DNA of 64,000 nucleotides from Escherichia coli (GTDB lineage Bacteria; Pseudomonadota; Gammaproteobacteria; Enterobacterales; Enterobacteriaceae). The position numbers were made by a program, and so were the translations under genes. Of the stretch, positions 5,103 to 47,095 are shown one piece after another. Location: assembly GCF_003018255.1 (NCBI RefSeq), contig NZ_CP027440.1. One strand, given 5' to 3'. The notes under the pieces were generated by a model, which worked only from the letters and a program-made list of their open reading frames with translations, did not search any database and was not told the origin of the DNA. Numbering within the stretch: the stretch's first letter is position 1; each line of letters starts with the position of its first letter.

Positions 5103-5642
5103 ATGACTGAAACGATAAAAGTAAGTGAATCACTTGAATTACATGCTGTTGCAGAAAGTCATGTCACACCTCTTTATCAGTTAATCTGTAAAAATAGAAC
5201 CTGGTTACAGCAGTCGCTAAACTGGCCGCAGTTTGTTCAAAGTGAAGAGGACACGCGAAAAACGGTGCAGGGTAATGTGATGTTGCATCAACGCGGCTAT
5301 GCCAAAATGTTCATGATTTTCAAAGAAGATGAACTTATCGGCGTTATCTCGTTTAATCGTATTGAACCACTGAATAAAACCGCTGAAATCGGCTACTGGC
5401 TGGACGAATCTCATCAGGGGCAGGGGATCATTTCTCAGGCGCTGCAGGCATTGATTCATCATTACGCTCAGTCTGGTGAACTTAGACGCTTCGTGATCAA
5501 ATGTCGGGTGGACAATGCGCAAAGCAACCAGGTCGCTTTGCGCAATGGTTTTATCCTTGAAGGTTGTCTGAAACAGGCTGAGTTCCTGAATGATGCCTAT
5601 GATGATGTGAACTTATACGCGCGTATTATCGATTCACAATAA
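5103..5642 (+). CDS. rimL: Ribosomal protein L7/L12 serine N-acetyltransferase (GNAT)
   Basis: ORF 5088..5642 (TTG); ATG at 5103 with GGAG 5 nt upstream gives 179 aa; GNAT motifs. Confidence 0.8.
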
Positions 5643-6614
5643 CCCTGCCAGCGGCGTTCGCGTAATGCGCTCCTCGCCGTTAATGACTTTTGGACCACGG
5701 ACATGAACCGTGTCGCCATCAAAGGCTTCAACGACGGCGTGGTCGGTTAACTCCACATGTTTTTCAATTATCACCGCACCTGTAATACGGCTCTCACCTT
5801 GTATTACAACGTGCTCGTCGAGCAGAATCGGTCCGCCACGTACCACGGCATTTCCGCCAATCAAGACATGATGTTTTAACACACAATTACCTTCCACAAT
5901 GGCATATTCCGCCACCTGCGAACTGTAATGAATCGTCGGAATGGCATCTTCTTCTATGCCAGCTTTCACCTGCGCGTGACCGTAGACTTTAGCACAATCG
6001 CATAGCCAGACGTTGTTCTCTTCATTACCTTCAACGCTGGCAAAATCAAAAACTTCGGCGCGATGTTCAATAAAAGCATACCGGACGACGGCATCGCCAT
6101 AAATTTGTGCCTGGTGAACAATACGCGAGGCGCTAACCCTTGCGCGATCATAAATTTGTAGCAGGAGTTGATGGTCGGGCGTTAAGCCTTGTGCGGCGAC
6201 GATCATAGAATGTTGATCAATTAAGGCGTGACCAAATATTCTACATTGCCCGCAAACTAATGAGTCACGAATGGTGACACTGTCACTTATATATGCACCC
6301 TGACTGATTTCACTATTATCGATCCAGACGTTATCCGTTGCGTAAACCTCTCCCCACAGTACGCTGGTGCCGGTGATGCGCGTATTACCGGAAATCACCG
6401 CTCCGCCGAACGCAATAGCATTCTGGTCGTAAATCCAGCAATTTCCTTCCTGTGCTAACACCGTTTCGCAATCGATCCAGCCGCCAGCGGTTCCTGCTAT
6501 CACATCGTTAAAATCGCTCATGGCGATAATCTGCCGTAATAACACACTTTTTTTAGTGCCATCATCCTGATAACTAAAGGCTCGCTGTTCTTCACTTAGA
6601 CGATATTTGCGCAT
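5634..6614 (-). CDS. ydcK: Hexapeptide-repeat (left-handed beta-helix) protein of unknown function
   Basis: 326-aa ORF; repetitive hexapeptide-like pattern; recognised as YdcK. Confidence 0.8.
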
Positions 6615-28954: not shown

Positions 28955-30454
28955 TTAGCTCGCCGTTTCAGGCTTAAACACAATTTCCTGTTTTTCTTCA
29001 TCTTCCTCGACGACTGGCGCAGTGCTGTGAATTTCAGCAACGCGTTTGCGCACACCAAACCAGCCTATAACCAGCAGAATACCGATAATCGGCAGCGCCG
29101 CGATAGTATAAGTCCCGTTCGGGTAATCGAACGCCATCAGCACAAGGACGCTCAGCAAAAACAGTAATGTCAGCCAGGAAGTGAAGGGCGCGCCAGGCAG
29201 TTTAAAACTGACATCCGCTGCTTTGCCTTCTTTAATCGCTTTACGCAGGCGCATCTGGCACACGATGATAAACGCCCATGAAGCGATGATTCCCAGCGAC
29301 GCGAAGTTCAACACAATCTCAAATACGCGCGACGGCACCAGATAGTTGAGGAATACGCCGACGACATACACAACCAGTGTCGCCAGAATCCCGGCATACG
29401 GCACATGCTGACGACTCATTTTCGCCATAAAACTCGGTGCGGAACCGCCCATCGCCATCGAGCGCAGAATACGTCCGGTGCAGTACAGACCTGAGTTCAG
29501 GCTGGAGAGGGCAGCGGTCAGCACCACAATGTTCATAATGCTGCCGATGTACGGCACACCCAGTTTAGAGAAAAACGTCACGAACGGACTTTGCCCCGCC
29601 TGATACGCGCTCCACGGCAATAACATAACCAGCAACACCACGGAGCCGACGTAAAACAGGCCAATACGCCAAATCACACTGTTAATCGCTTTAGGCACCA
29701 TGGTCTGCGGATCTTTACATTCTCCGGCAGCTGTACCCACCATTTCAATGGAGGCAAAAGCAAACACTACGCCCTGAATCAACACCAGCGCAGGTAGCAA
29801 ACCGTGGGGGAAGAAGCCGCCGTTATCGGTAATTAAATGAAAGCCAGTGGTGTTGCCATCCAGCGGCTGACCACTACCGAGGAACACTGTACCCACGACC
29901 AAAAAGGTCACAATGGCGAGCACTTTAATAAGCGCAAACCAGAACTCCATCTCGGCAAACCATTTCACACCAATCATATTCATGGTGCCAACGATGGTCA
30001 GCGCAGCGAGCGCAAAGACCCACTGCGGTACACCACCAAATGCGCCCCAGTAATGCATATACAGTGCAACGGCGGTAATATCGACAATCCCCGTCATCGC
30101 CCAGTTGATGAAGTACATCCAGCCTGCAACATAAGCGGCTTTCTCACCCAAAAACTCACGGGCATAAGAGACAAAACTGCCACTGGAAGGGCGGTGTAGC
30201 ACCAGCTCACCCAATGCACGCAGAATAAAAAACGAAAACAAGCCGCAGATTAAATAGACCAGTGCCAGTGCTGGCCCCGCCATTTGCAGTCGGGCTCCCG
30301 CGCCTAAAAACAAACCCGTACCAATCGCGCCGCCAATGGCGATCATCTGCACCTGGCGATTGCCCATCGCTTTGTGATACCCCTCTTCGTGGGCATTAAG
30401 CCAGCGGCGTTTCGCGGCGTGCTGATCTGAAGTGTCGGTGTCGTGTTTACTCAT
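28955..30454 (-). CDS. ansP: L-asparagine permease (APC family amino acid transporter)
   Basis: ORF 28955..30505; start set at ATG 30454 (MSKHDTDTSDQHAAKRRWLNAHEEGYHKAMGNRQVQMIAIGG) giving 499 aa. Confidence 0.9.
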   Translation of the reverse strand: MSKHDTDTSDQHAAKRRWLNAHEEGYHKAMGNRQVQMIAIGGAIGTGLFLGAGARLQMAGPALALVYLICGLFSFFILRALGELVLHRPSSGSFVSYAREFLGEKAAYVAGWMYFINWAMTGIVDITAVALYMHYWGAFGGVPQWVFALAALTIVGTMNMIGVKWFAEMEFWFALIKVLAIVTFLVVGTVFLGSGQPLDGNTTGFHLITDNGGFFPHGLLPALVLIQGVVFAFASIEMVGTAAGECKDPQTMVPKAINSVIWRIGLFYVGSVVLLVMLLPWSAYQAGQSPFVTFFSKLGVPYIGSIMNIVVLTAALSSLNSGLYCTGRILRSMAMGGSAPSFMAKMSRQHVPYAGILATLVVYVVGVFLNYLVPSRVFEIVLNFASLGIIASWAFIIVCQMRLRKAIKEGKAADVSFKLPGAPFTSWLTLLFLLSVLVLMAFDYPNGTYTIAALPIIGILLVIGWFGVRKRVAEIHSTAPVVEEDEEKQEIVFKPETAS

Positions 30455-30720
30455 TGCTCTCCCTGATTGCTTTAATGAAAAAGTCATATAAGTTGCCATG
30501 AACAATGTTTATTCATCCTGGCGATGATAGTTATCACCATTATTCTTTATGGGTATAAAACTATCGGCGCAGCATCCTACCCGTTATCGATAAACGATGC
30601 AAAACATCCCCTTACAATTCTGAAGGGGATTCATACAACTGACGAAAAAATGACAAATACTTTTGCTGGTTAACCTGTGTGCTGTCCTAGACTTAATCTT
30701 TAAAAGATTGTGAGGGGCAT

Positions 30721-31338
30721 ATGATTAAGGTGCATGGCGTACCCGGATGGGGCACTACAATCAGTGAGATGATGCTAACACTGGCTGATATTCCTTATCA
30801 GTTCGTTGATGTCAGTGGTTTTGACCACGAGGGAACTTCACGCGAGTTATTGAAAACCCTGAACCCGTTGTGTCAGATTCCGACACTGGCGCTGGAAAAT
30901 GACGAGATTATGACGGAGACAGCGGCGATTGCATTGATGGTTCTCGATCGTCGCCCGGACCTTGCGCCACCGGTTGGGCGCGCCGAACGTCAGCAGTTTC
31001 AACGGCTATTGGTCTGGCTGGTTGCTAATGTCTATCCAACATTCACTTTCGCCGATTACCCTGAGCGTTGGGCTCCTGACGCACCCGAACAGTTAAAGAA
31101 TAATGTTATTGAATATCGTAAATCGCTTTATATCTGGCTGAATTCACAATTGACCGCTGAACCTTATGCGTTTGGTGAGCAACTAACGCTGGTGGACTGT
31201 TATCTTTGCACCATGCGCACATGGGGGCCGGGGCATGAATGGTTTCACGATAATGCGCAGAATATCAGCTCGATCGCTGAAGCTGTATGTCAGTTACCGA
31301 AATTACAAGAAGTATTAAAAAGGAATGAAATTATTTGA
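30721..31338 (+). CDS. yncG: Glutathione S-transferase-like protein
   Basis: 205-aa ORF; GST N- and C-domain-like. Confidence 0.8.
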   Translation: MIKVHGVPGWGTTISEMMLTLADIPYQFVDVSGFDHEGTSRELLKTLNPLCQIPTLALENDEIMTETAAIALMVLDRRPDLAPPVGRAERQQFQRLLVWLVANVYPTFTFADYPERWAPDAPEQLKNNVIEYRKSLYIWLNSQLTAEPYAFGEQLTLVDCYLCTMRTWGPGHEWFHDNAQNISSIAEAVCQLPKLQEVLKRNEII

Positions 31339-31413
31339 ATGGGATACCAGAAGATTATGTTATTTATTATTCAGTAACTTTATCCACAATGATGGACGTA
31401 ATTAATTAGATTC

Positions 31414-31626
31414 ATGTTATGTTTTTTAATTTATATCACTCTCCCTTTCATTCAGCTTGTTTATTTCATTTCCTCTGAAAAGAAACTAACTATTCACATT
31501 GTGCAGATGTTTCAGTTGTTATCACAGGCATTCTATAATCTCAAAATGTTTTTAATGATGGATATGCTCGGAGTTGGAGATGCAATTAATATTAATACAA
31601 ATAAAAATATCCGGCAGGTATGCTAA
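31414..31626 (+). CDS. yncH: Small hydrophobic protein of unknown function
   Basis: 70-aa AT-rich ORF; recognised as YncH. Confidence 0.65.
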   Translation: MLCFLIYITLPFIQLVYFISSEKKLTIHIVQMFQLLSQAFYNLKMFLMMDMLGVGDAININTNKNIRQVC

Positions 31627-32461
31627 AAGGATAAATGGCGTTCTCTGTATTTATTCGCGATTATCTGTAGGACAAATATGGAGCGCTTGATGAGTCAGAG
31701 CTAAAACAGCAATTGATAAATAAACATGTTGATTTATTCAAGAAAATGGATGTATTTCAAATATTGATTCTTAATATAACCTAATCAATAGATTATCACG
31801 TGAGAGCTGCACATTATTGGAGGGGCAGGGGAAAACACCATTTTGGGAACAATGAATCAGGTACTCTTACCACTGAAGCAAGATCATCCGGGCACCAGGT
31901 GGTGGTGCAGTGCTTTGGAAATGGTCCCCTCGGGGGAGTTGTCATTATTTTCTATGCTATTTGCTTATGATATTCATCAGGTGAATTTAATAAATTCCTA
32001 ATTTTAAATATCCACTATTAAGCCAGTGTTTAACGGCGTTAAGATGGCAATGTGCAGATCATGTTATCAGAGTGGGGCGGTAGCGTATATTCCTTATACA
32101 AACCATCATTCATTTCAATGATTGTTATTGAATTATTTATTGTTGTGAATAAAAAGACATTATGAATATTGGTTTGACTTTGCATATCAGGTTTTTTATT
32201 ATTCGCTCTAATGTACGAGCCTGTCGTGAATAACGTCGAGAACCCATCCGTTGCGTTTGTGATTATTTTGTTGACTAAACAGACACCCGTTTCTCTGAAG
32301 TAAAATCCCATACTAAATCATCACATAACCATGACATTTTTCTGATATTCCCCGGTAACGCCAGATGTCGACTCGCTTATCTCATCCGCCCGACATGTTG
32401 TACATGCAATATGTGCGGATTATTATTCATTTTCACGGAGGTTGCTATGTCAACCGGATTA

Positions 32462-33753
32462 CCAGGGAAAGATCACGTAACGCTGCTTTTTTGCACTAAA
32501 TAATTCGCATTTTATGTTTAAAAATTGAGATATTCCTCATTACCTGAAGCTGTTTTTTATTGCGTATACATGTTCAAATACTCCTTACATAATTAAGGAG
32601 AACAAAATGGAACTTAAAAAATTGATGGAACATATTTCTGTTATCCCCGATTACAGACAAGCCTGGAAAGTGGAACATAAATTGTCGGATATTCTACTGT
32701 TGACTATTTGTGCCGTTATTTCTGGTGCAGAAGGCTGGGAAGATATAGAGGATTTTGGGGAAACACATCTCGATTTTTTGAAGCAATATGGTGATTTTGA
32801 AAATGGTATTCCTGTTCACGATACCATTGCCAGAGTTGTATCCTGTATCAGTCCTGCAAAATTTCACGAGTGCTTTATTAACTGGATGCGTGACTGCCAT
32901 TCTTCAGATGATAAAGACGTTATTGCAATTGATGGAAAAACGCTCCGGCATTCTTATGACAAGAGTCGCCGCAGGGGAGCGATTCATGTCATTAGTGCGT
33001 TCTCAACAATGCACAGTCTGGTCATCGGACAGATCAGGACGGATGAGAAATCCAATGAGATCACAGCTATCCCAGAACTTCTTAACATGATGGATATTAA
33101 AGGAAAAATCATCACAACTGATGCGATGGGTTGCCAGAAAGATATCGCAGATAAGATACAAAAACAGGGCGGTGATTATTTATTCGCTGTAAAAGGAAAT
33201 CAGGGGCGGCTTAATAAAGCCTTTGAGGAAAATTTCCCACTGAAAGAATTAAATAATCCAGAGCATGACAGTTACGCAATTAGTGAAAAAAGTCACGGCA
33301 GAGAAGAAATCCGTCTTCATATTGTTTGCGATGTCCCTGATGAACTTATTGATTTCATGTTTGAATGGAAAGGTCTGAAGAAATTATGCGTGGCAGTCTC
33401 CTTTCGGTCAATAATAGCAGAACAAAAGAAAGAGCCAGAAATGACGGTCAGATATTATATCAGTTCTGCTGATTTAACCGCAGAGAAGTTCGCCACAGCA
33501 ATCCGAAACCACTGGCACGTGGAGAATAAGCTGCACTGGCGTCTGGACGTGGTAATGAATGAAGACGACTGCAAAATAAGAAGAGGAAATGCAGCAGAAT
33601 TATTTTCAGGGATACGGCACATCGCTATTAATATTTTAACGAATGATAATGTATTCAAGGCAGGGTTAAGACGTAAGATGCGAAAAGCAGCCATGGACAG
33701 AAACTACCTGGCGTCAGTCCTTGCGGGGAGCGGGCTTTCGTAATCTTTCCCTG
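32462..33753 (+). mobile_element. H-repeat element (ISAs1-family insertion sequence), copy 1, about 1292 bp with imperfect terminal inverted repeats cagggaaagatca ... taatctttccctg
   Basis: Near-identical to copy 2 at 39125..40415; ends defined by where the two copies lose similarity to each other; IRs read from sequence. Confidence 0.8.
32607..33743 (+). CDS. H-repeat-associated protein / ISAs1-family transposase (378 aa)
   Basis: 378-aa ORF with AAGGAG site; about 97 percent identical to the ORF at 39269..40405; recognised as YdcC/YhhI-type H-rpt protein. Confidence 0.85.
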
Positions 33754-34359
33754 AACACCGAGGTGCTGAATAACCGCACCACGGATGTGATAAACAACCA
33801 TGCTGAGACCATCGGCAACAATCAGGTGATTGCGGTTACCAACAATCAGATACAGACGGTGGGCGTTAACCAGATAGAGACGGTGGGCAGTAACCAGATC
33901 ATTAAAGTGGGCTCTGTTCAGGTGGAAACGATTGGACTTGTTCGTGCGCTGACCGTGGGCGTGGCGTATCAGACGACGGTAGGTGGCATTATGAACACCT
34001 CGGTGGCCCTGATGCAGTCCTCGCAGATCGGTTTGCATAAATCGTTGATGGTCGGGCTGGGTTATGACGTCAAAGTCGGAAATAACGTTACCTTCACCGT
34101 TGGTAAAACGAAAAAGGATGATACCGGACAGACCGCGATTTACTCCGCCGGTGAGCATCTGGAACTCTGCTGTGGTAAGGCAAGGCTGGTGCTGACTAAG
34201 GACGGACAAATTTTTCTCAACGGCACAAAAATTCATTTGCAGGGTAAGGAGCAGGTTAATGGTGACTCACTGTTGATTAACTGGAACTGTGCAGCCTCGA
34301 AATCCCCACCGAAGACCCCTGATGAAAAGCAGGATACGCCGGATATGAGAGAGTACTGA
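33754..34359 (+). pseudogene. VgrG (T6SS spike protein) C-terminal fragment, 5'-truncated at the H-repeat boundary
   Basis: Reading frame open from the H-rpt right end; product carries VgrG C-terminal repeat motifs (VINNHAETIGNNQVIAVTNNQIQTVGVNQIETVGSNQ...). Confidence 0.7.
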
Positions 34360-34425
34360 TCCCGTACCTGTTCGGTATTCAGTAACAAACAAGCATTAAA
34401 AATAAACAGAAGAAGGAATTGAATC

Positions 34426-37400
34426 ATGAGCGGAAAACCAGCGGCGCGTCAGGGAGATATGACTCAGTATGGCGGTCCCATTGTCCAGGGTTCGGCAGGT
34501 GTAAGAATTGGCGCGCCCACCGGCGTGGCGTGCTCGGTGTGTCCGGGCGGGATGACTTCGGGCAACCCGGTAAATCCGCTGCTGGGGGCGAAGGTGCTGC
34601 CCGGCGAGACGGACCTTGCGCTGCCCGGCCCGCTGCCGTTCATTCTCTCCCGCACCTACAGCAGCTACCGGACGAAGACGCCTGCGCCGGTGGGGATTTT
34701 TGGCCCCGGCTGGAAAGCGCCTTCTGATATCCGCTTACAGATACGCGATGATGCACTGGTACTCAACGACAACGGCGGACGGAGCATTCACTTTGAGCCG
34801 CTGCTGCCGGGTGAGGCGGTGTACAGCCGCAGCGAGTCAATGTGGCTGGTGCGCGGTGGTAAGGCAGCGCAGCCGGACGGCCACACGCTGGGGCGGCTGT
34901 GGGGGGCGCTGCCGCCGGATATCCGGTTAAGCCCGCATCTTTACCTGGCGACCAGCAGCGCACAGGGACCGTGGTGGATACTGGGGTGGTCAGAGCGGGT
35001 GCCGGGTGCTGAGGACGTACTGCCAGCGCCGCTGCCGCCGTACCGGGTGCTGACGGGGCTGGCGGACCGCTTCGGGCGGACGCTGACGTACCGGCGTGAG
35101 GCCGCCGGCGACCTGGCCGGGGAAATCACCGGCGTGACGGACGGTGCCGGGCGTGAGTTCCGTCTGGTGCTGACCACGCAGGCGCAGCGTGCGGAAGAGG
35201 CCCGCACCTCTTCGCTATCTTCTTCTGACCGTCCCCGCCCTCTCTCAGTCTCAGCGTTCCCCGACACACTGCCCGGTACCGAATACGGCCCCGACAGGGG
35301 TATCCGCCTTTCGGCGGTGTGGCTGATGCACGACCCGGCATACCCGGAGAGCCTGCCCGGTGCGCCACTGGTGCGGTACACGTATACGGAAGCCGGTGAA
35401 CTGCTGGCGGTATATGACCGCAGCAATACGCAGGTGCGCGCTTTCACGTATGACGCGCAGCACCCGGGCCGGATGGTGGCGCACCGTTACGCGGGAAGGC
35501 CGGAGATGCGCTACCGCTACGACGATGCGGGGCGGGTGGTGGAGCAGCTGAACCCGGCAGGCCTGAGTTACCGCTACCAGTATGAGCAGGACCGCATCAC
35601 CGTCACCGACAGCCTGAACCGGCGTGAGGTGCTGCATACAGAAGGCGGGGCCGGGCTGAAGCGGGTGGTGAAAAAAGAACTGGCGGACGGCAGCGTCACG
35701 CACAGCGGGTATGACGCGGCAGGAAGGCTCACGGCACAGACGGACGCGGCGGGACGGCGGACAGAGTACGGCCTGAATGTGGTGTCCGGCGATATCACGG
35801 ATATCACCACGCCGGACGGGCGGGAGACGAAATTTTACTATAACGACGGGAACCAGTTAACGGCGGTGGTGTACCCGGACGGGCTGGAGAGCAGCCGGGC
35901 ATATGATGAGCTGGACAGACTGGTATCGGAGACATCGCGCAGCGGGGAGACAGTACGCTACCGCTACGATGACGTGCACAGTGAGTTACCGGCGACGACA
36001 ACGGATGCGACGGGCAGCACCCGGCAGATGACCTGGAGCCGCTACGGGCAGTTGCTGGCCTTCACCGACTGCTCGGGCTACCAGACCCGCTATGAATACG
36101 ACCGCTTCGGCCAGATGACGGCGGTTCACCGCGAGGAAGGTATCAGCCTTTACCGCCACTATGACAACCGTGGCCGGTTAACCTCGGTGAAAGACGCACA
36201 GGGCCGTGAAACGCAGTATGAGTACAACGCCGCAGGCGACCTGACTGCCGTTATCACCCCGGACGGCAACCGGAGCGAGACACAGTACGATGCGTGGGGA
36301 AAGGCGGTCAGCACCACGCAGGGCGGGCTGACGCGCAGTATGGAGTACGATGCTGCCGGACGTGTCATCAGCCTGACCAACGAGAACGGCAGTCACAGCG
36401 ACTTCAGCTACGATGCGCTGGACCGCCTGGTACAGCAGGGCGGCTTTGACGGGCGGACGCAACGTTATCATTATGACCTGACCGGAAAACTCACGCAGAG
36501 TGAAGATGAGGGGCTTGTCATCCTCTGGTACTACGATGAATCGGACCGTATCACTCACCGCACGGTGAACGGCGAACCGGCAGAGCAGTGGCAGTATGAT
36601 GGCCACGGCTGGCTGAGAGAAATCAGCCACCTGAGCGAAGGCCACCGTGTTGCCGTCCACTATGGCTACGACGATAAGGGCCGTCTGACCGGGGAGCGCC
36701 AGACGGTGGAGAACCCGGAGACGGGGGAACTGCTGTGGCAGCATGAGACGAAACAGGCATACAACGAACAGGGGCTGGCAAACCGCGTCACGCCGGACAG
36801 CCTGCCGCCGGTGGAGTGGCTGGCCTATGGCAGCGGTTATCTGGCGGGCATGAAGCTGGGCGGGACGCCGCTGCTGGAGTACATGCGGGACAGACTGCAC
36901 CGGGAGACGGTGCGCAGCTTCGGCAGCATGGCAGGCAATACAGCCGCATATGAACTGACCAGCACTTACACCCCCGCAGGCCAGTTACAGAGCCGGCACC
37001 TGAACAGCCTGGTGTTTGATTGTGACTATAACTGGAATGACAACGGCGACCTGATGCGCATCAGCGGCCCGCGACAGACGCGGGAATACGGCTACAGCGC
37101 CACGGGCAGGCTGGAGAGCGTGCGCACCCTCGCACCGGACCTGGACATCCGCATCCCGTATGCCACCGACCCGGCGGGCAACCGGCTGCCGGACCCGGAG
37201 CTGCACCCGGACAGTACACTCACAGTGTGGCCGGATAACCGAATCACCGAAGACGCGCACTACCTGTACCGTTACGATGAATACGGCAGGCTGGCGGAGA
37301 AGACGGACCGCATCCCGGCGGGTGTGATACGGACGGACGACGAGCGGACCCACCACTACCACTACGACAGCCAGCACCGCCTGGTGTTCTATACGCGGAT

Positions 37401-38586
37401 ACAGCATGGCGAGCCACTGGTCGAGAGCCGCTACCTTTACGACCCGCTGGGCCGCCGGACGGGTAAACGGGTATGGCGGCGGGAGCGTGACCTGACGGGG
37501 TGGATGTCGCTGTCGCGTAAACCGGAGGTGACGTGGTACGGCTGGGACGGCGACCACCTGACGACGGTGCAGACCGACACCACGCGTATCCAGACGGTAT
37601 ATCAGCCGGGGAGCTTCGCGCCGCTCATCCGCATCGAAACAGACAACGGTGAGCGGGAGAAAGCGCAGCGCCGCAGCCTGGCGGAGAAGCTGCAGCAGGA
37701 AGGGAGCGAGGACGGGCACGGCGTGGTATTTCCGGCTGAACTGGTGCGGCTGCTGGACAGACTGGAGGAAGAAATCCGGGCAGACCGCGTGAGCAGTGAA
37801 AGCCGGGCGTGGCTTGCGCAGTGCGGGCTGACGGTGGAGCAACTGGAAAAACAGGTGGAGCCGGAATACACACCGGCGCGAAAAGTTCATCTTTACCACT
37901 GCGACCACCGGGGACTGCCGCTGGCGCTTATCAGCGAAGACGGCAATACGGTGTGGAGCGCGGAGTATGATGAATGGGGAAACCTGCTTAATGAGGAGAA
38001 CCCGCATCATGTGTATCAGTCATACCGTCTGCCGGGGCAGCAGCATGATGAGGAGTCGGGGCTGTACTACAACCGGAACCGGTACTACGATCCGTTGCAG
38101 GGGCGGTATATCATCCAGGACCCGATAGGGCTGGCGGGGGGAATAAACCCGTACAGTTATGTTATGAACAATCCTGTGCAATGGATTGATCCATTGGGAT
38201 TAGCTCATACTTCAGGAAAATGGAAGGACTGTGGTAAAGGTTGTCGAATCCGAATAGATGGCGATGCTGTTGGTGACGGAAGACATTTGCATTGGGAGTG
38301 TAAAAATGGGAGTGGTGTAATGGGGGAATTTGGAGGTATGTCCCATGGTGAGGATTACTCATCAGCACCAAATAGCATTAAGAAATGTGCAAAAAAATAT
38401 GGTTTCGAGCCAGAACCAAGTAAAGATCTGTCATGCAAAACCTCCGGGCTATCAACTACTGATGCGGCTCTTGCAACTGGTGCTACAATTGGCGCAGGGT
38501 ATGTTATATATAGAGTGATTCGATTTATACCTTCACTTGCACCACCTCTTTGGTGGTCAATACCTGCAAACGTTGTTACTCCATGA
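34426..38586 (+). CDS. rhsE: Rhs-family polymorphic toxin with N-terminal PAAR motif, YD-repeat core and divergent C-terminal domain (1386 aa)
   Basis: Literal PAAR at residues 5-8 ([11 protein letters not shown]); numerous YD repeats; conserved core end DPIGLAGG...DPLGL at 38119-38202; sharp GC-rich to AT-rich switch after about 38160. Confidence 0.9.
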
Positions 38587-39124: not shown

Positions 39125-40415
39125 CAGGGAAAGATCATCAGAAGTACACTTTTTGTACTAAATAATTCGCATTTTATGTTTAAAAATTGAGATATTCCTC
39201 ATTACCTAAAGCTGTTTTTTATTGCTTATACATGATCAAATACTCCTTACATAATTAAGGAGAACAAAATGGAACTTAAAAAATTGATGGGACATATTTC
39301 TATTATCCCCGATTACAGACAAACCTGGAAAGTGGAACATAAATTGTCAGATATTCTACTGTTGATTATTAGTGCCGTTATTTCTGGTGCAGAAGGCTGG
39401 GAAGATATAGAGGATTTTGGGGAAACACATCTCGATTTTTTAAAGCAATATGGTGATTTTAAAAATGGTATTCCTGTTCACGATACCATTGCCAGAGTTG
39501 TATCCTGTATCAGTCCTGCAAAATTTCACGAGTGCTTTATTAACTGGATGCGTGACTGCCATTCTTCAGATGATAAAGACGTCATTGCAATTGATGGAAA
39601 AACGCTCCGGCATTCTTATGACAAGAGTCGTCGCAGGGGAGCGATTCATGTCATTAGTGCATTCTCAACAATGCACAGTCTGGTCATCGGACAGATCAGG
39701 ACGGATGAGAAATCTAATGAGATTACAGCTATCCCTGAACTTCTTAACATGCTGGACATTAAAGGAAAAATTATCACAACTGATGCGATGGGTTGCCAGA
39801 AAGATATTGCAGAGAAGATACAAAAACAGGGAGGTGATTATTTATTCTCTGTAAAAGGAAACCCGGGGCGGCTGAATAAAGCTTTTGAGGAAAAATTTCC
39901 ACTGAAAGAATTAAATAATCCAGAGCATGACAGTTACGCAATTAGTGAAAAGAGTCACGGCAGAGAAGAAATCCGTCTTCACATTGTTTGCGATGTCCCT
40001 GATGAACTTATTGATTTCACGTTTGAATGGAAAGGTCTGAAGAAATTATGCGTGGCAGTCTCCTTTCGGTCAATAATAGCAGAACAAAAGAAAGAGCCAG
40101 AAATGACGGTCAGATATTATATCAGTTCTGCTGATTTAACCGCAGAGATGTTCGCCACAGCAATCCGAAACCACTGGCACGTGGAGAATAAGCTGCACTG
40201 GCGTCTGGACGTGGTAATGAATGAAGACGACTGCAAAATAAGAAGAGGAAACGCCGCAGAATTATTTTCAGGGATACGGCACATCGCTATTAATATTTTA
40301 ACGAATGATAAGGTATTCAAGGCAGGGTTAAGACGTAAGATGCGAAAAGCAGCCATGGACAAAAACTATCTGGCGTCAGTCCTTGCGGGGAGCGGGCTTT
40401 CGTAATCTTTCCCTG
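39125..40415 (+). mobile_element. H-repeat element (ISAs1-family insertion sequence), copy 2, about 1291 bp, same orientation as copy 1
   Basis: Near-identical to 32462..33753 including terminal inverted repeats. Confidence 0.8.
39269..40405 (+). CDS. H-repeat-associated protein / ISAs1-family transposase (378 aa)
   Basis: 378-aa ORF with AAGGAG site; paralogue of 32607..33743. Confidence 0.85.
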
Positions 40416-45551: not shown

Positions 45552-47095
45552 TATTCGCCCTCCGCTTTGTCGCGCACTTCGGTGATGTTGATGGCATCGA
45601 TACGGCTACTGTTGAACAGGTTGAATTTGCTGTCCGAGCCGTGGCAACCGTCGCCAAAGGTAAAACCGCAGCCATTGCGTTCTGCGAAGGCATCGCCCGC
45701 CATTTCCCGATGACTGGTTGGAATGACAAAACGGTCTTCATAGTTGGCAATGGCGAGGTAGCGATACATCTCTTCGACCTGGGCGACGCTCAGGCCTACT
45801 TCGTCAATGGCGCGGGTATCGGTAACGCCTTCCACGGTTTGTGAACGCATATAGTGGCGCATCGCCATCATCCGTTTTAGCGCCCGCAGTACCGGACCGG
45901 TATCGCCAGCACTTAACATATTGGCGAGATATTGCACAGGAATACGCAGGCTTTCGATGGCGGGCAGCACGCCTTCGCTTTTCGGCAAGCCGCCCGCATC
46001 AGCGTAGGACTGAATCGGTGACAGCGGAGGAACGTACCAGACCATCGGCAGGGTGCGATATTCAGGGTGCAGCGGTAGCGCCAGTTTCCAGTCCATCGCC
46101 ATTTTGTAGACTGGCGAACGCTGGGCAGCTTCAATCACGTTTTGTGGAATACCTTGTTTCAGGGCTTCTTCGATCACTGAGGGATCGTGCGGATCGAGGA
46201 ACACTTCGCACTGGCGTTCATAGAGGTCAACTTCGCGCTCGGTGCTCGCCGCTTCCTCGATGCGGTCGGCGTCGTAAAGCAGCACGCCCAGATACCGGAT
46301 GCGACCCACGCAGGTTTCTGAGCACACGGTGGGTTGGCCTGACTCAATTCGTGGGTAACAGAAGATGCATTTTTCTGACTTGCCGCTTTTCCAGTTGAAG
46401 TAGATTTTTTTGTACGGACAACCGCTAATGCACAAACGCCAGCCACGGCATTTATCCTGATCGATCAGCACAATGCCGTCTTCTTCGCGTTTGTAGATAG
46501 CGCCGCTTGGGCAGGTCGCCACGCAGCTGGGATTGAGGCAGTGTTCGCACAAGCGCGGTAGGTACATCATGAAGGTGTTTTCAAACTGCCCGTACATCTC
46601 CTTTTGCATGGCCTCGAAGTTGCGGTCACGGGCGCGTTTTTCGAATTCGCCGCCCAACAATTCTTCCCAGTTTGGCCCCCAGATCACTTTGTCCATCCGT
46701 TTGCCGTCAATCAGTGAACGCGGGCGAGCAGTAGGGATATGTTTGCCTTCCGGTGCGCTATGCAAATGTTCGTAGTCGAAGGTGAAAGGTTCGTAGTAAT
46801 CATCAATCTGCGGCACCACCGGGTTGGCGAAGATTTTGGTTATTACGCCCATCTTGCTGCCCAGACGCGGGCGGATCTTGCCATTCACATCACGCACCCA
46901 GCCGCCTTGCCACTCTTCCTGATCTTCCCAGTTTTTCGGATAACCAATGCCCGGTTTGGTTTCGACGTTGTTAAACCATGCGTACTCCATGCCTTCGCGT
47001 CCGGTCCAGACGTTTTTACAGGTCACCGAACAGGTATGGCAGCCGATACATTTATCGAGGTTAAGCACCATGCCGACTTGCGAACGTATTTTCAT
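45551..47095 (-). CDS. narY: Nitrate reductase Z beta subunit (Fe-S)
   Basis: 514-aa ORF with multiple Cys clusters (CIGCHTCSVTCK, CEHCLNPSCVATCP...). Confidence 0.9.
   Translation of the reverse strand: MKIRSQVGMVLNLDKCIGCHTCSVTCKNVWTGREGMEYAWFNNVETKPGIGYPKNWEDQEEWQGGWVRDVNGKIRPRLGSKMGVITKIFANPVVPQIDDYYEPFTFDYEHLHSAPEGKHIPTARPRSLIDGKRMDKVIWGPNWEELLGGEFEKRARDRNFEAMQKEMYGQFENTFMMYLPRLCEHCLNPSCVATCPSGAIYKREEDGIVLIDQDKCRGWRLCISGCPYKKIYFNWKSGKSEKCIFCYPRIESGQPTVCSETCVGRIRYLGVLLYDADRIEEAASTEREVDLYERQCEVFLDPHDPSVIEEALKQGIPQNVIEAAQRSPVYKMAMDWKLALPLHPEYRTLPMVWYVPPLSPIQSYADAGGLPKSEGVLPAIESLRIPVQYLANMLSAGDTGPVLRALKRMMAMRHYMRSQTVEGVTDTRAIDEVGLSVAQVEEMYRYLAIANYEDRFVIPTSHREMAGDAFAERNGCGFTFGDGCHGSDSKFNLFNSSRIDAINITEVRDKAEGE

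Follow-up and report, generated by a model that had tools for sequence, protein, structure and literature searches.

The 835-bp tract at positions 31627-32461 of the analysed 64,000-nt stretch of Escherichia coli DNA (the window) is, with a probability of about 70%, the native upstream non-coding region of a stand-alone vgrG-rhsE (vgrE/RhsE) T6SS effector island, serving as an H-NS-silenced promoter/leader. The tract is the intact native intergenic region between yncH and vgrG, and it is no deletion scar, pseudogene or RNA gene. Two parts can be distinguished, a locus-specific spacer (31627-31941) and a promoter/leader module that belongs to vgrG (31942-32446). Within the module, a conserved element of 118 bp (31972-32089, plus strand) is the sole segment for which constraint was detected. 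This reading is built on the synteny, the breakpoints of the deletion, the duplicated module, the constrained element and the lack of coding or RNA signals, all determined here, together with the binding of RNA polymerase, H-NS and PhoB that others have demonstrated in K-12.

The native region between yncH and vgrG

The initial annotation described the tract as AT-biased and poor in open reading frames, and both properties are confirmed. The GC content is 37.5%, compared to 50.3% in the whole window, only 4% of all 835-bp windows are equally or more AT-rich, and no credible reading frame is present. The base composition is uneven, since a patch with 50% GC (31800-31950) is flanked by DNA with 30-36% GC. 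The position given for the tract also holds, apart from the final 15 bases (32447-32461), which are the start of vgrG and not spacer. The longest reading frame, with 90 codons on the minus strand (32039-32311), was rightly suspected of being spurious. Its length is unremarkable, as frames of at least 90 aa occur in 6.8% of shuffled sequences. The ATG start codon (T at 32311) is found in two of 24 distinct tract sequences and replaced by CTG in the remainder, and the frame is disrupted by indels of 4 bp and 8 bp in a second copy of the module next to cusS. No Pfam or NCBIfam family matched the 90-aa product above noise, and a large protein database returned just a few Escherichia and Shigella entries ('hypothetical protein, partial'), all of them representing the same DNA. 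None of the genome records listed, including the curated MG1655 record, carries an annotated feature within the tract.

The full tract (at least 80% of its length) is present in 3,542 of 5,426 complete E. coli genomes with approximately 98% identity. A somewhat longer segment from the yncG stop codon to the insertion sequence junction (31339-32462) is likewise about 98% identical in approximately 3,540 genomes, and an annotated vgrG usually comes next. In some of the genomes without the full tract, other island types fill the same ansP locus. The comparison to O157, where an intact vgrG and then rhsE come after the tract, revealed collinearity over 31000-32462 without any break. K-12 retains 31627-32379 of the window at 97.7% identity; there, a deletion that extends from 32380 into rhsE has removed vgrG along with 67 bp at the 3' end of the tract. 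It had been proposed that the tract was horizontally acquired. This is likely, in view of its AT-richness, the H-NS binding reported in K-12 and its presence in 3,542 of the 5,426 genomes, and it gains further support from the fact that the 3' 505 bp accompany vgrG at a second chromosomal site.

The loss of the 5' portion of vgrG had also been placed in the tract. However, the suggested comparison with strains carrying an intact vgrG shows that the tract is collinear with theirs at approximately 98% identity, and therefore no loss occurred inside it. No breakpoint relative to the intact alleles was found within the tract; the breakpoint is 32462/32463, at the inverted repeat of an insertion sequence. 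The vgrG ribosome-binding site (GGAGG, 32437-32441), the ATG (32447) and the gene's initial 16 nt are all retained on the plus strand (32437-32462), as judged from collinearity with the annotated starts in O157 (L002, position 5108) and in the cusS copy (L004, position 6483), and the loss begins at 32463. Translation from this ATG stops after 18 codons, inside the end of the insertion sequence (reading frame 32411-32503).

The insertion sequence is an ISAs1-family element (H-repeat) of 1,291 bp (32463-33753, plus strand), which replaces nucleotides 17-1501 of vgrG, that is 1,485 bp or codons 6-500. With ISAs1 insertion sequences (H-repeats, ISEc1-like) it shares the transposase (378 aa, 32607-33743) and the terminal inverted repeats, which comprise 25 nt each (32463-32487 and 33729-33753) and are 80% complementary; it is not part of the tract. 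No target-site duplication was found around 32463-33753. This fits an adjacent deletion caused by the insertion sequence or a recombination between two copies, and it is no argument against membership in the ISAs1 family. Homology to the O157 vgrG ends at 32462 and restarts at 33752 (L002, position 6609). From there on, the surviving 3' fragment of vgrG (33752-34359, plus strand) is 98% identical to the O157 gene, and in an identical genome it is labelled 'gp5 trimerisation domain, missing N-terminus'. Behind the fragment and on the same strand lies rhsE (34426-38586), an intact PAAR-Rhs gene. The junction of tract and insertion sequence occurs in three to four of the 5,426 genomes; truncation of vgrG by ISAs1, as seen in this strain, is rare and lineage-specific.

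A duplicated module and its conserved element

The two parts of the tract differ in their history. The AT-rich spacer 3' of yncH (31627-31941), which includes most of the GC patch, is a single-copy sequence in 3,575 of 5,426 E. coli genomes with 97-99% identity and is never annotated. It cannot be aligned with the cusS copy (41% identity), and a second copy of the first 334 bp of the tract was not found in any E. coli genome. Within the GC patch, a 1-bp indel at 31890 divides the 24 distinct sequences 13 to 11, and the spacer shows no sign of constraint. The module (31942-32446, plus strand), on the other hand, was duplicated along with vgrG. It shares 78% identity with the 482 bp that precede the stand-alone vgrG linked to cusS (L004, positions 6001-6482). 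Counted from the ATG, the homology of both loci begins near -505 and ends near +1510, well inside the coding sequence.

This duplication provides a neutral reference, since the fourfold-degenerate sites of the two vgrG copies are 78% identical. The leader outside the 118-bp element has the same identity (22% difference) and contains indels, whereas the element itself (-475 to -358) differs at only 9 of 118 positions. This corresponds to 92.4% identity (binomial p ~2e-5 against the neutral 78%). Along the alignment with the cusS copy, identity amounts to 92% in the element, drops to 72-80% directly after it and does not recover before the coding sequence. Among the 24 distinct sequences, every other segment is more polymorphic than the element, which has 5.1 variable sites per 100 bp compared to 13.7 in the leader. 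In the remaining approximately 700 bp of the tract, no constraint beyond the neutral rate was found. Since the leader outside the element is neutral and bears indels, the greater part of the tract may have no specific function.

The element is also recognizable in more distant islands. Islands of the M8 type, Escherichia sp. E1V33 and E. whittamii retain it at approximately 75% identity, with flanks that cannot be aligned. The comparison across island types delimits an invariant core, GTGCAGAT-N7-TCAGrGTrGrGCGGTAGC (32052-32084, plus strand), which can also be written GTGCAGAT-N7-TCAGGGTGGGGCGGTAGCG and varies little or not at all between the four Escherichia island types and Superficieibacter electus. 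A scan of genome contigs with the core pattern found it in two other Escherichia species and, as the core only, in S. electus. The same scan gave two matches in unrelated phyla, one in a Verrucomicrobiia MAG and one in Rhodococcus. In metagenomes, at least 120 loci were detected, and among the matches listed all belong to the four known Escherichia types. In the plasmid collection, the element matched only mislabelled chromosomes.

The position of the element relative to the genes is rather uniform. Among the matches listed, 110 of 132 copies are followed by a same-strand vgrG at a distance of 340-1,430 bp; the copies without one are on short contigs or represent deletion alleles of the K-12 type. 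In the M8 type, the element precedes an effector-immunity pair and vgrG follows after that. The orientation is constant, the distance to the first gene of the island is 225-360 bp, and at ansP and cusS the element stands at the head of four different cassettes. The left edge of the shared module is no more than about 30 bp away from it, and remnants of ISAs1 adjoin it in strains of the KE47 type and in E. whittamii. A role as integration site was considered and rejected, as no second copy was found at the right end of the island. The sole weak match elsewhere in the window, at 46061, lies in a 514-aa reading frame that we take to be narY, and it is therefore treated as coincidental.

The element further contains a palindromic AT-rich site, GTGAATTTAATAAATTCC (GAATTTA-A-TAAATTC, 31981-31998), that was read from the sequence and is conserved across the types. 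It presumably resembles the H-NS nucleation motif tCGATAAATT, reportedly described by Lang et al. in 2007, and we regard it as a candidate nucleation site. Tentatively, and with more doubt than confidence, one could go further and assume that the 118-bp element is an undescribed cis-regulatory 'island head' of Escherichia and its close relatives, which co-activates all stand-alone vgrG-effector islands. An unknown regulator, or H-NS nucleation combined with an anti-silencer, may in this case act through the element. The 11-mer GGCGGTAGCGT, which is also located 93 bp upstream of vgrG3 in the main cluster of EHEC, could link the islands to the main T6SS cluster.

Candidate promoters and regulator binding

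Two candidate sigma-70 promoters are located in the module, both on the plus strand. P1 (TTATCA-16-TATATT, 32064-32091) was found by a consensus scan and overlaps the core motif. It occupies the same position in the yncH and cusS types but has no equivalent in those of M8, KE47 and Superficieibacter. P2 (TTGACT-17-TATTAT, 32174-32202) is the best consensus match in the region (10/12); its -10 hexamer reads TATTAC in K-12 and most strains. The site is not preserved in the cusS copy, where the alignment has an 8-bp gap. Neither of the two is thus conserved across all island types, and promoter-like sites are not enriched in the region, with six found and 6.9 expected from shuffled sequences. However, P2 is the same site as the promoter named by Shimada et al. 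for the yncH-rhsE spacer of K-12, where a genomic-SELEX peak of the RpoD holoenzyme was detected in vitro and the region is flagged as bound by H-NS (PMC3946193).

Other regulators have been reported as well. A weak PhoB ChIP-seq peak lies at position 1,527,862 of MG1655 in a region marked as H-NS-bound (PMC10294691), and the tract contains a PhoB box, TATCAGAAAAATGTCATG (32330-32347, minus strand), that matches the reported ChIP-seq motif exactly. A weak genomic-SELEX peak of FlhDC converts to approximately 31686 (PMC9962212). According to a secondary citation, rhsE is induced by chemical stress. All binding reports refer to K-12, a strain that lacks vgrG through the deletion and with it the final 67 bp of the tract. 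Since binding of RNA polymerase, H-NS and PhoB has been published for K-12, the tract is not the inert spacer DNA that the initial annotation had considered in case of neither transcription nor homology. An RpoN genomic-SELEX peak in K-12 (1,527,534 in older coordinates) converts to a position inside rhsE and not in the tract. A sigma-54 promoter was rejected, as the core has a bare GG-N10-GC spacing and matches the rest of the consensus poorly. A terminator-like hairpin with a weak T-run, TCCCCTCGGGGGA (31925-31937, plus strand), lies just upstream of the shared module. It is the only such site in 31300-32650, but it does not exceed chance expectation because shuffled sequences contain 0.8 sites on average.

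From these observations we infer which promoter may be in use and what the 118-bp element may do. In strains with the intact gene, transcription of vgrG and rhsE would start at a sigma-70 promoter in the module (32064-32091 or 32174-32202), and H-NS bound to the AT-rich DNA would normally silence this promoter. Control would be exerted at the element (31972-32089), as an operator or as a site of silencer nucleation overlapping the promoter, and by sharing it several stand-alone vgrG islands would come under common control. In the present strain, the module is still intact but now leads into the ISAs1 element in place of vgrG codons 6-500.

Alternative explanations and related systems

The strong conservation of the element could also stem from a role in DNA exchange and not in transcription. 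The tract might be mostly inert, drifting spacer in which the element is the homology anchor of exchangeable vgrG-effector cassettes and is kept alike by recombination or gene conversion. Several observations would agree with this: the leader outside the element evolves with indels and at the rate of fourfold-degenerate sites, 31627-31941 cannot be aligned between the loci, the element is no more than about 30 bp away from the left edge of the module and heads four cassettes at ansP and cusS, and remnants of ISAs1 abut it in KE47-type strains and E. whittamii. However, gene conversion should homogenise the adjacent leader too, and identity falls from 92% to 72-80% right past the element. Moreover, the core is invariant between types whose flanks cannot be aligned and even in another genus, which looks like selection on the sequence itself, and the element keeps its fixed orientation 225-360 bp before the first gene of the island. 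We therefore consider the anchor explanation unlikely, although not negligible. An action at the RNA level, by a small regulatory RNA or a structured 5' leader (similar to a riboswitch or thermosensor) that affects vgrG post-transcriptionally, appears less probable still. Transcription from either candidate promoter would produce a long leader of 240-350 nt, the terminator-like hairpin is present at 31925-31937, and a promoter swap at EHEC vgrG1 yielded no protein, for which the authors discuss a possible post-transcriptional repression (PMC13141884). Yet the leader is neutral and contains indels, the curated MG1655 record has no annotation here, and the small RNA that the initial annotation thought possible left no trace in our searches. 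Searching 30500-34500 against Rfam with cmscan gave no match at E-values up to 1, and the folding of the GC patch (both strands) and of a putative 386-nt leader did not differ from shuffled sequences (z = +0.53, -0.05 and -0.29). RNAalifold of nine sequences of the element resulted in -4.1 kcal/mol without a single compensatory pair.

The same annotation had also suggested degraded gene remnants. A tract that is a graveyard of decayed genes, including a scar of the vgrG 5' deletion, is the least probable of the explanations weighed here. The 150-bp patch of genome-typical GC content (31800-31950) amid AT-rich DNA might be taken for such a remnant, and a decayed yncG remnant in Escherichia sp. 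E1V33 indicates that gene decay does happen at this locus. However, the collinearity with intact-vgrG strains leaves no place for a loss inside the tract. The ten tract reading frames of at least 30 aa gave nothing but noise with Pfam and NCBIfam, including a match to agmatine deiminase that was rejected (16.6 bits against a cut-off of 483 bits), and the longest of them retrieves only the same DNA. The one patch with normal GC content carries the frameshift polymorphism at 31890 at intermediate frequency (13 vs 11), and the first 334 bp have no second copy in any E. coli genome.

Among related systems, the RhsE/vgrE locus (the yncH-rhsE spacer of K-12 and Z2262 'vgrE' of EDL933) is the same locus with the same DNA and has been named the vgrE orphan locus (PMC12981562), and in neither literature source on this locus is the upstream region itself described. 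The present strain differs from K-12 in that ISAs1 replaces vgrG codons 6-500 and rhsE is intact, whereas the K-12 deletion runs from 32380 into rhsE. A functional counterpart might be h3R, the hcp3-vgrG3 intergenic region of EHEC, which comprises a terminator, a promoter and a leader and was experimentally found to be regulatory and repressed by H-NS (PMC13141884). Like the tract, h3R is non-coding and directly upstream of vgrG, and by analogy it works in the way that our model would predict for the tract. However, the two are not homologous (209 bp in h3R, 820 bp in the tract); a comparison revealed only 27 nt around the ribosome-binding site and ATG and the isolated 11-mer GGCGGTAGCGT in common.

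The tract also shares the AT-richness, the variable presence and, in K-12, the reported H-NS binding with targets of xenogeneic silencing. Silencing alone leaves the conservation of the 118-bp element above the neutral rate unexplained. The scattered stand-alone vgrG islands of Pseudomonas aeruginosa, which are reported to be controlled by RpoN/Sfa2 and RsmA (PMC8855297), represent the same concept of a shared cis-element and a common regulator. The tract differs from these islands, as it has no convincing sigma-54 promoter.

For genome annotation, our results amount to a clean-up: the tract is neither a scar nor a pseudogene nor an RNA gene. According to recent papers on EHEC, the T6SS and the stand-alone vgrG/Rhs islands of E. 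coli are notoriously silent under laboratory conditions, and what activates them is not known. A short, sequence-defined element at the head of at least four types of vgrG islands offers a concrete handle for finding the regulator.

Intact vgrG upstream region and the position of the vgrG lesion

The tract at 31627-32461 (835 bp) of this E. coli chromosomal window lies directly behind yncH (31414-31626), which is preceded by ansP (28955-30505, minus strand) and yncG (30721-31338). [quoted passage not shown] The DETEC-S792 chromosome carries essentially the same sequence as the window (99.9% identity). In agreement with the initial annotation, the tract is AT-rich and poor in ORFs: its GC content is 37.5% versus 50.3% window-wide, equal AT-richness is reached in only 4% of 835-bp windows, and its longest ORF is no longer than expected. 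Nothing is annotated inside it in any genome record returned by our searches or in the curated MG1655 record. The composition is uneven, with 50% GC in a 150-bp patch at 31800-31950.

The tract had also been regarded as the probable place where the 5' portion of vgrG was lost, which the comparison with strains carrying an intact vgrG does not bear out. With 31339-32606 as megablast query against 5,426 complete E. coli genomes, at least 80% of the query was covered in 3,541 genomes at about 98% identity. Most of the genomes listed have a match that stops at query position 1124 (window 32462) and covers part of a gene annotated as 'type VI secretion system tip protein VgrG'. In the O157 strain 180-PT54, 820 bp without annotation separate yncH from a 2,109-bp vgrG, behind which rhsE follows. 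The window aligns to this strain over 31000-32462 and resumes at 33752, and the missing piece is nt 17-1501 of the O157 vgrG (1,485 bp). As the alignment stops at nt 16 of vgrG, the tract ends in the gene's own GGAGG (32437-32441), ATG (32447) and first 16 nt, and there is no loss within the tract itself. In place of the missing vgrG segment, an ISAs1-family element of 1,291 bp stands beyond the tract. Its terminal inverted repeats are 25 nt long (32463-32487 and 33729-33753), and it carries a gene for a 378-aa transposase (32607-33743). There is no target duplication at its flanks (…GGATTAC on the left and AACACCGAG… on the right), a pattern consistent with a deletion next to the IS or with recombination of two IS copies. 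The junction of tract and IS occurs in only 3 of the 5,426 genomes, plus one two-piece match. The K-12 lesion differs, with the tract kept to 32379 and a deletion from there into rhsE. The breakpoint of the vgrG loss falls at the IS, and the tract is the unaltered ancestral intergenic region.

The transposase gene has the same orientation as vgrG and, therefore, transcription from the vgrG promoter region may now enter the IS and continue to the intact rhsE. From the surviving vgrG ATG, an 18-residue peptide (MSTGLPGKDHVTLLFCTK, 32447-32503) can be read that ends inside the left end of ISAs1. A second H-repeat copy is present downstream of rhsE in direct orientation (39150-39449 versus 32488-32787, 96% identity over 300 nt), and recombination between the two copies would delete the vgrG fragment together with rhsE.

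Coding and RNA potential of the tract

The longest ORF of the tract (90 aa, minus strand) had been considered spurious, and our results confirm this. ORFs of at least 90 aa occur in 6.8% of shuffles, and the ATG, created by a T at 32311 that is a rare variant, is present in 2 of 24 distinct tract sequences, the others having CTG. In a second copy of the region beside cusS, indels of 4 and 8 bp break the frame. A search of the 90-aa ORF against 5.8 billion proteins retrieved only entries from the same DNA under the label 'hypothetical protein, partial', and none of ten tract ORFs of at least 30 aa matched a Pfam or NCBIfam family above noise. The GC-normal patch is incompatible with coding, since a 1-bp indel in it is split 13 to 11 among the distinct sequences.

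The initial annotation had further suggested a small RNA or degraded gene remnants, for which we found neither a protein-family match nor an Rfam match (E up to 1) nor a fold signal: the z-scores for the GC-normal patch (both strands) and the putative 386-nt leader were +0.53, -0.05 and -0.29.

A constrained element at the head of vgrG islands

A sensitive search revealed a second copy of 31942-32462 in many genomes (78% identity), directly upstream of another stand-alone vgrG beside cusS, where the gene order is vgrG, a DcrB-like gene and a Rhs/toxin gene. The first 334 bp of the tract have no second copy anywhere in E. coli. Counted from the ATG, homology between the two loci extends from about -505 to about +1510, and beyond this the vgrG 3' ends diverge. 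The first ~1,510 nt of the vgrG coding sequence are about 92% identical between the copies, the fourfold-degenerate sites 77.7% and the leader (-357 to -1) 78% with 24 gap columns. The 118-bp element at -475 to -358 (window 31972-32089) is 92.4% identical (9 differences in 118), a conservation with a binomial p of ~2e-5 against either neutral benchmark, fourfold sites or leader. Variable sites per 100 bp, counted over 24 distinct yncH-type sequences of genomic and metagenomic origin, are also fewest in the element (5.1); the yncH coding sequence has 6.1, the upstream spacer 10.7 and the leader 13.7. The remainder of the tract appears unconstrained. Since support at the RNA level is absent (RNAalifold -4 kcal/mol, no compensatory pair), the constraint is most simply one on the DNA sequence. 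The element holds an AT-rich palindrome, GAATTTA-A-TAAATTC (31982-31996), with a possible resemblance to the high-affinity motif of H-NS, tCGATAAATT. An A for G at 32071, inside the invariant core, is a rare variant of this lineage (2 of 24 distinct sequences).

The element is also found at the head of other islands. The M8 type (M8, LCP30S3_I5, Escherichia sp. E1V33) occupies the ansP locus and lacks yncH; its element is ~75% identical with flanks that are not alignable. Genes for an HExxH protein and a lipoprotein begin ~250 bp downstream of it, and behind them come vgrG, a DcrB-like gene and a Rhs gene. In the KE47 type, the order is yncG, element core, ISAs1 remnant, PAAR gene and vgrG. 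In E. whittamii, H-repeat remnants follow the element, and in Superficieibacter electus just the core is present, ahead of small ORFs without annotation. The invariant core reads GTGCAGAT-N7-(T/A/C)ATCAG(G/A)GT(G/A)G(G/A)GCGGTAGC(G/A)T. A metagenome scan gave at least 120 loci, and all matches listed belong to the four Escherichia island types. Given sufficient downstream sequence, a same-strand vgrG is nearly always present behind the element: it lies downstream in 110 of the 132 oriented copies, and the other 22 are on short contigs or in K-12-type deletion alleles. The distance from element to vgrG is 363 bp in the yncH (RhsE) type, 339 bp in the cusS type, about 610 bp in the KE47 type and about 1,430 bp in the M8 type.

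Some further features of these islands deserve mention. The M8-type pair ahead of vgrG (5366-6255 in M8 locus L005, 5403-6286 in L006, 6262-7145 in E1V33 locus L011) comprises a 176-aa zincin-like HEMMH protein and a 118-120-aa lipoprotein (MKRFFLFLFLSGC…). They look like an effector-immunity pair; neither M8 protein has a Pfam match. In E1V33, a 125-bp stretch between ansP and the element (L011 5491-5613) is 69% identical to yncG (window 30900-31023), which points to yncG as an ancestral gene of the ansP locus that was lost by decay in M8-type lineages. In three independent island types, ends or remnants of ISAs1/H-repeats are found 5-380 bp downstream of the element (KE47, L014 5043-5190; E. 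whittamii, L010 10575-10757 and 11831-11906; window 32463). This pattern suggests that H-repeats have inserted or recombined repeatedly at the heads of these vgrG islands.

Possible regulatory role of the tract

Published K-12 data were placed on the window by subtracting 1,495,526 from NC_000913.3 positions. In the list of Shimada et al., the yncH-to-rhsE spacer has a constitutive RpoD-holoenzyme site, flagged 'HNS', with TTGACT-17-TATTAC as the named promoter (PMC3946193). It corresponds to 32174-32202, with TATTAT as -10 hexamer in this strain; the responsible T at 32202 is a rare variant (1 of 24 distinct sequences). Fitzgerald et al. found a weak PhoB ChIP-seq peak at 1,527,862 in a region marked H-NS-bound, with the motif TATCAGAAAAATGTCATG (PMC10294691), which we located at 32330-32347 on the minus strand. 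For FlhDC, a weak genomic-SELEX peak (PMC9962212) converts to about 31686. The RpoN-holoenzyme peak 'yncH > ydcD' was rejected as a feature of the tract, as it converts to a site inside rhsE (older coordinate 1,527,534, about NC_000913.3 1,529,510), in the AT-rich 3' end of the K-12 pseudogene. With binding of RNA polymerase, H-NS and PhoB published for K-12, the tract is not the inert spacer that the initial annotation had named as its alternative.

We propose that the vgrG–rhsE operon has its promoter and leader in the 505-bp module (31942-32446), under silencing by H-NS. Of two candidate sigma-70 promoters, P1 (32064-32091, TTATCA-16-TATATT) lies partly within the conserved core (32052-32084) and its position is conserved in both vgrG-proximal copies, at yncH and cusS; P2 (32174-32202) is the site named in K-12 and is not conserved in the cusS copy. 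Promoter-like matches are not enriched over shuffles, and the promoter choice is thus inferred. The element is probably the control site, acting as an operator or as a nucleation site that overlaps the promoter.

yncH itself (DUF5445, 30% GC) is among the K-12 genes that seem 'essential' by TraDIS only, in a paper that does not mention H-NS (PMC5821084). Since H-NS binding is reported in the adjoining spacer, this call may stem from poor transposon access and not from essentiality.

The closest functional analogue of the tract is h3R, the hcp3–vgrG3 intergenic regulatory region of the main type VI secretion cluster of EHEC, which combines terminator, promoter and leader under repression by H-NS (PMC13141884). 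Homology of the two regions was rejected, as the sequence in common is limited to the 27-nt stretch with the ribosome-binding site and ATG and to an isolated 11-mer, GGCGGTAGCGT. The 11-mer occurs once in the 64-kb window (32076-32086, the invariant 3' end of the core) and once in the 50-kb type VI secretion region of O157:H7 Sakai (L135 24769-24779), 93 bp upstream of vgrG3; this could be chance (rough estimate 1e-3) or a common binding site. In EHEC, the two stand-alone vgrG islands are independent of the main promoter, and a vgrG1 promoter swap gave no protein (PMC13141884).

The tract is thus probably an ordinary upstream regulatory region that had partly been misread as a deletion scar. 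We found no published description of the 118-bp element in the literature examined, and this constrained, island-associated element is the sole feature worth carrying forward.
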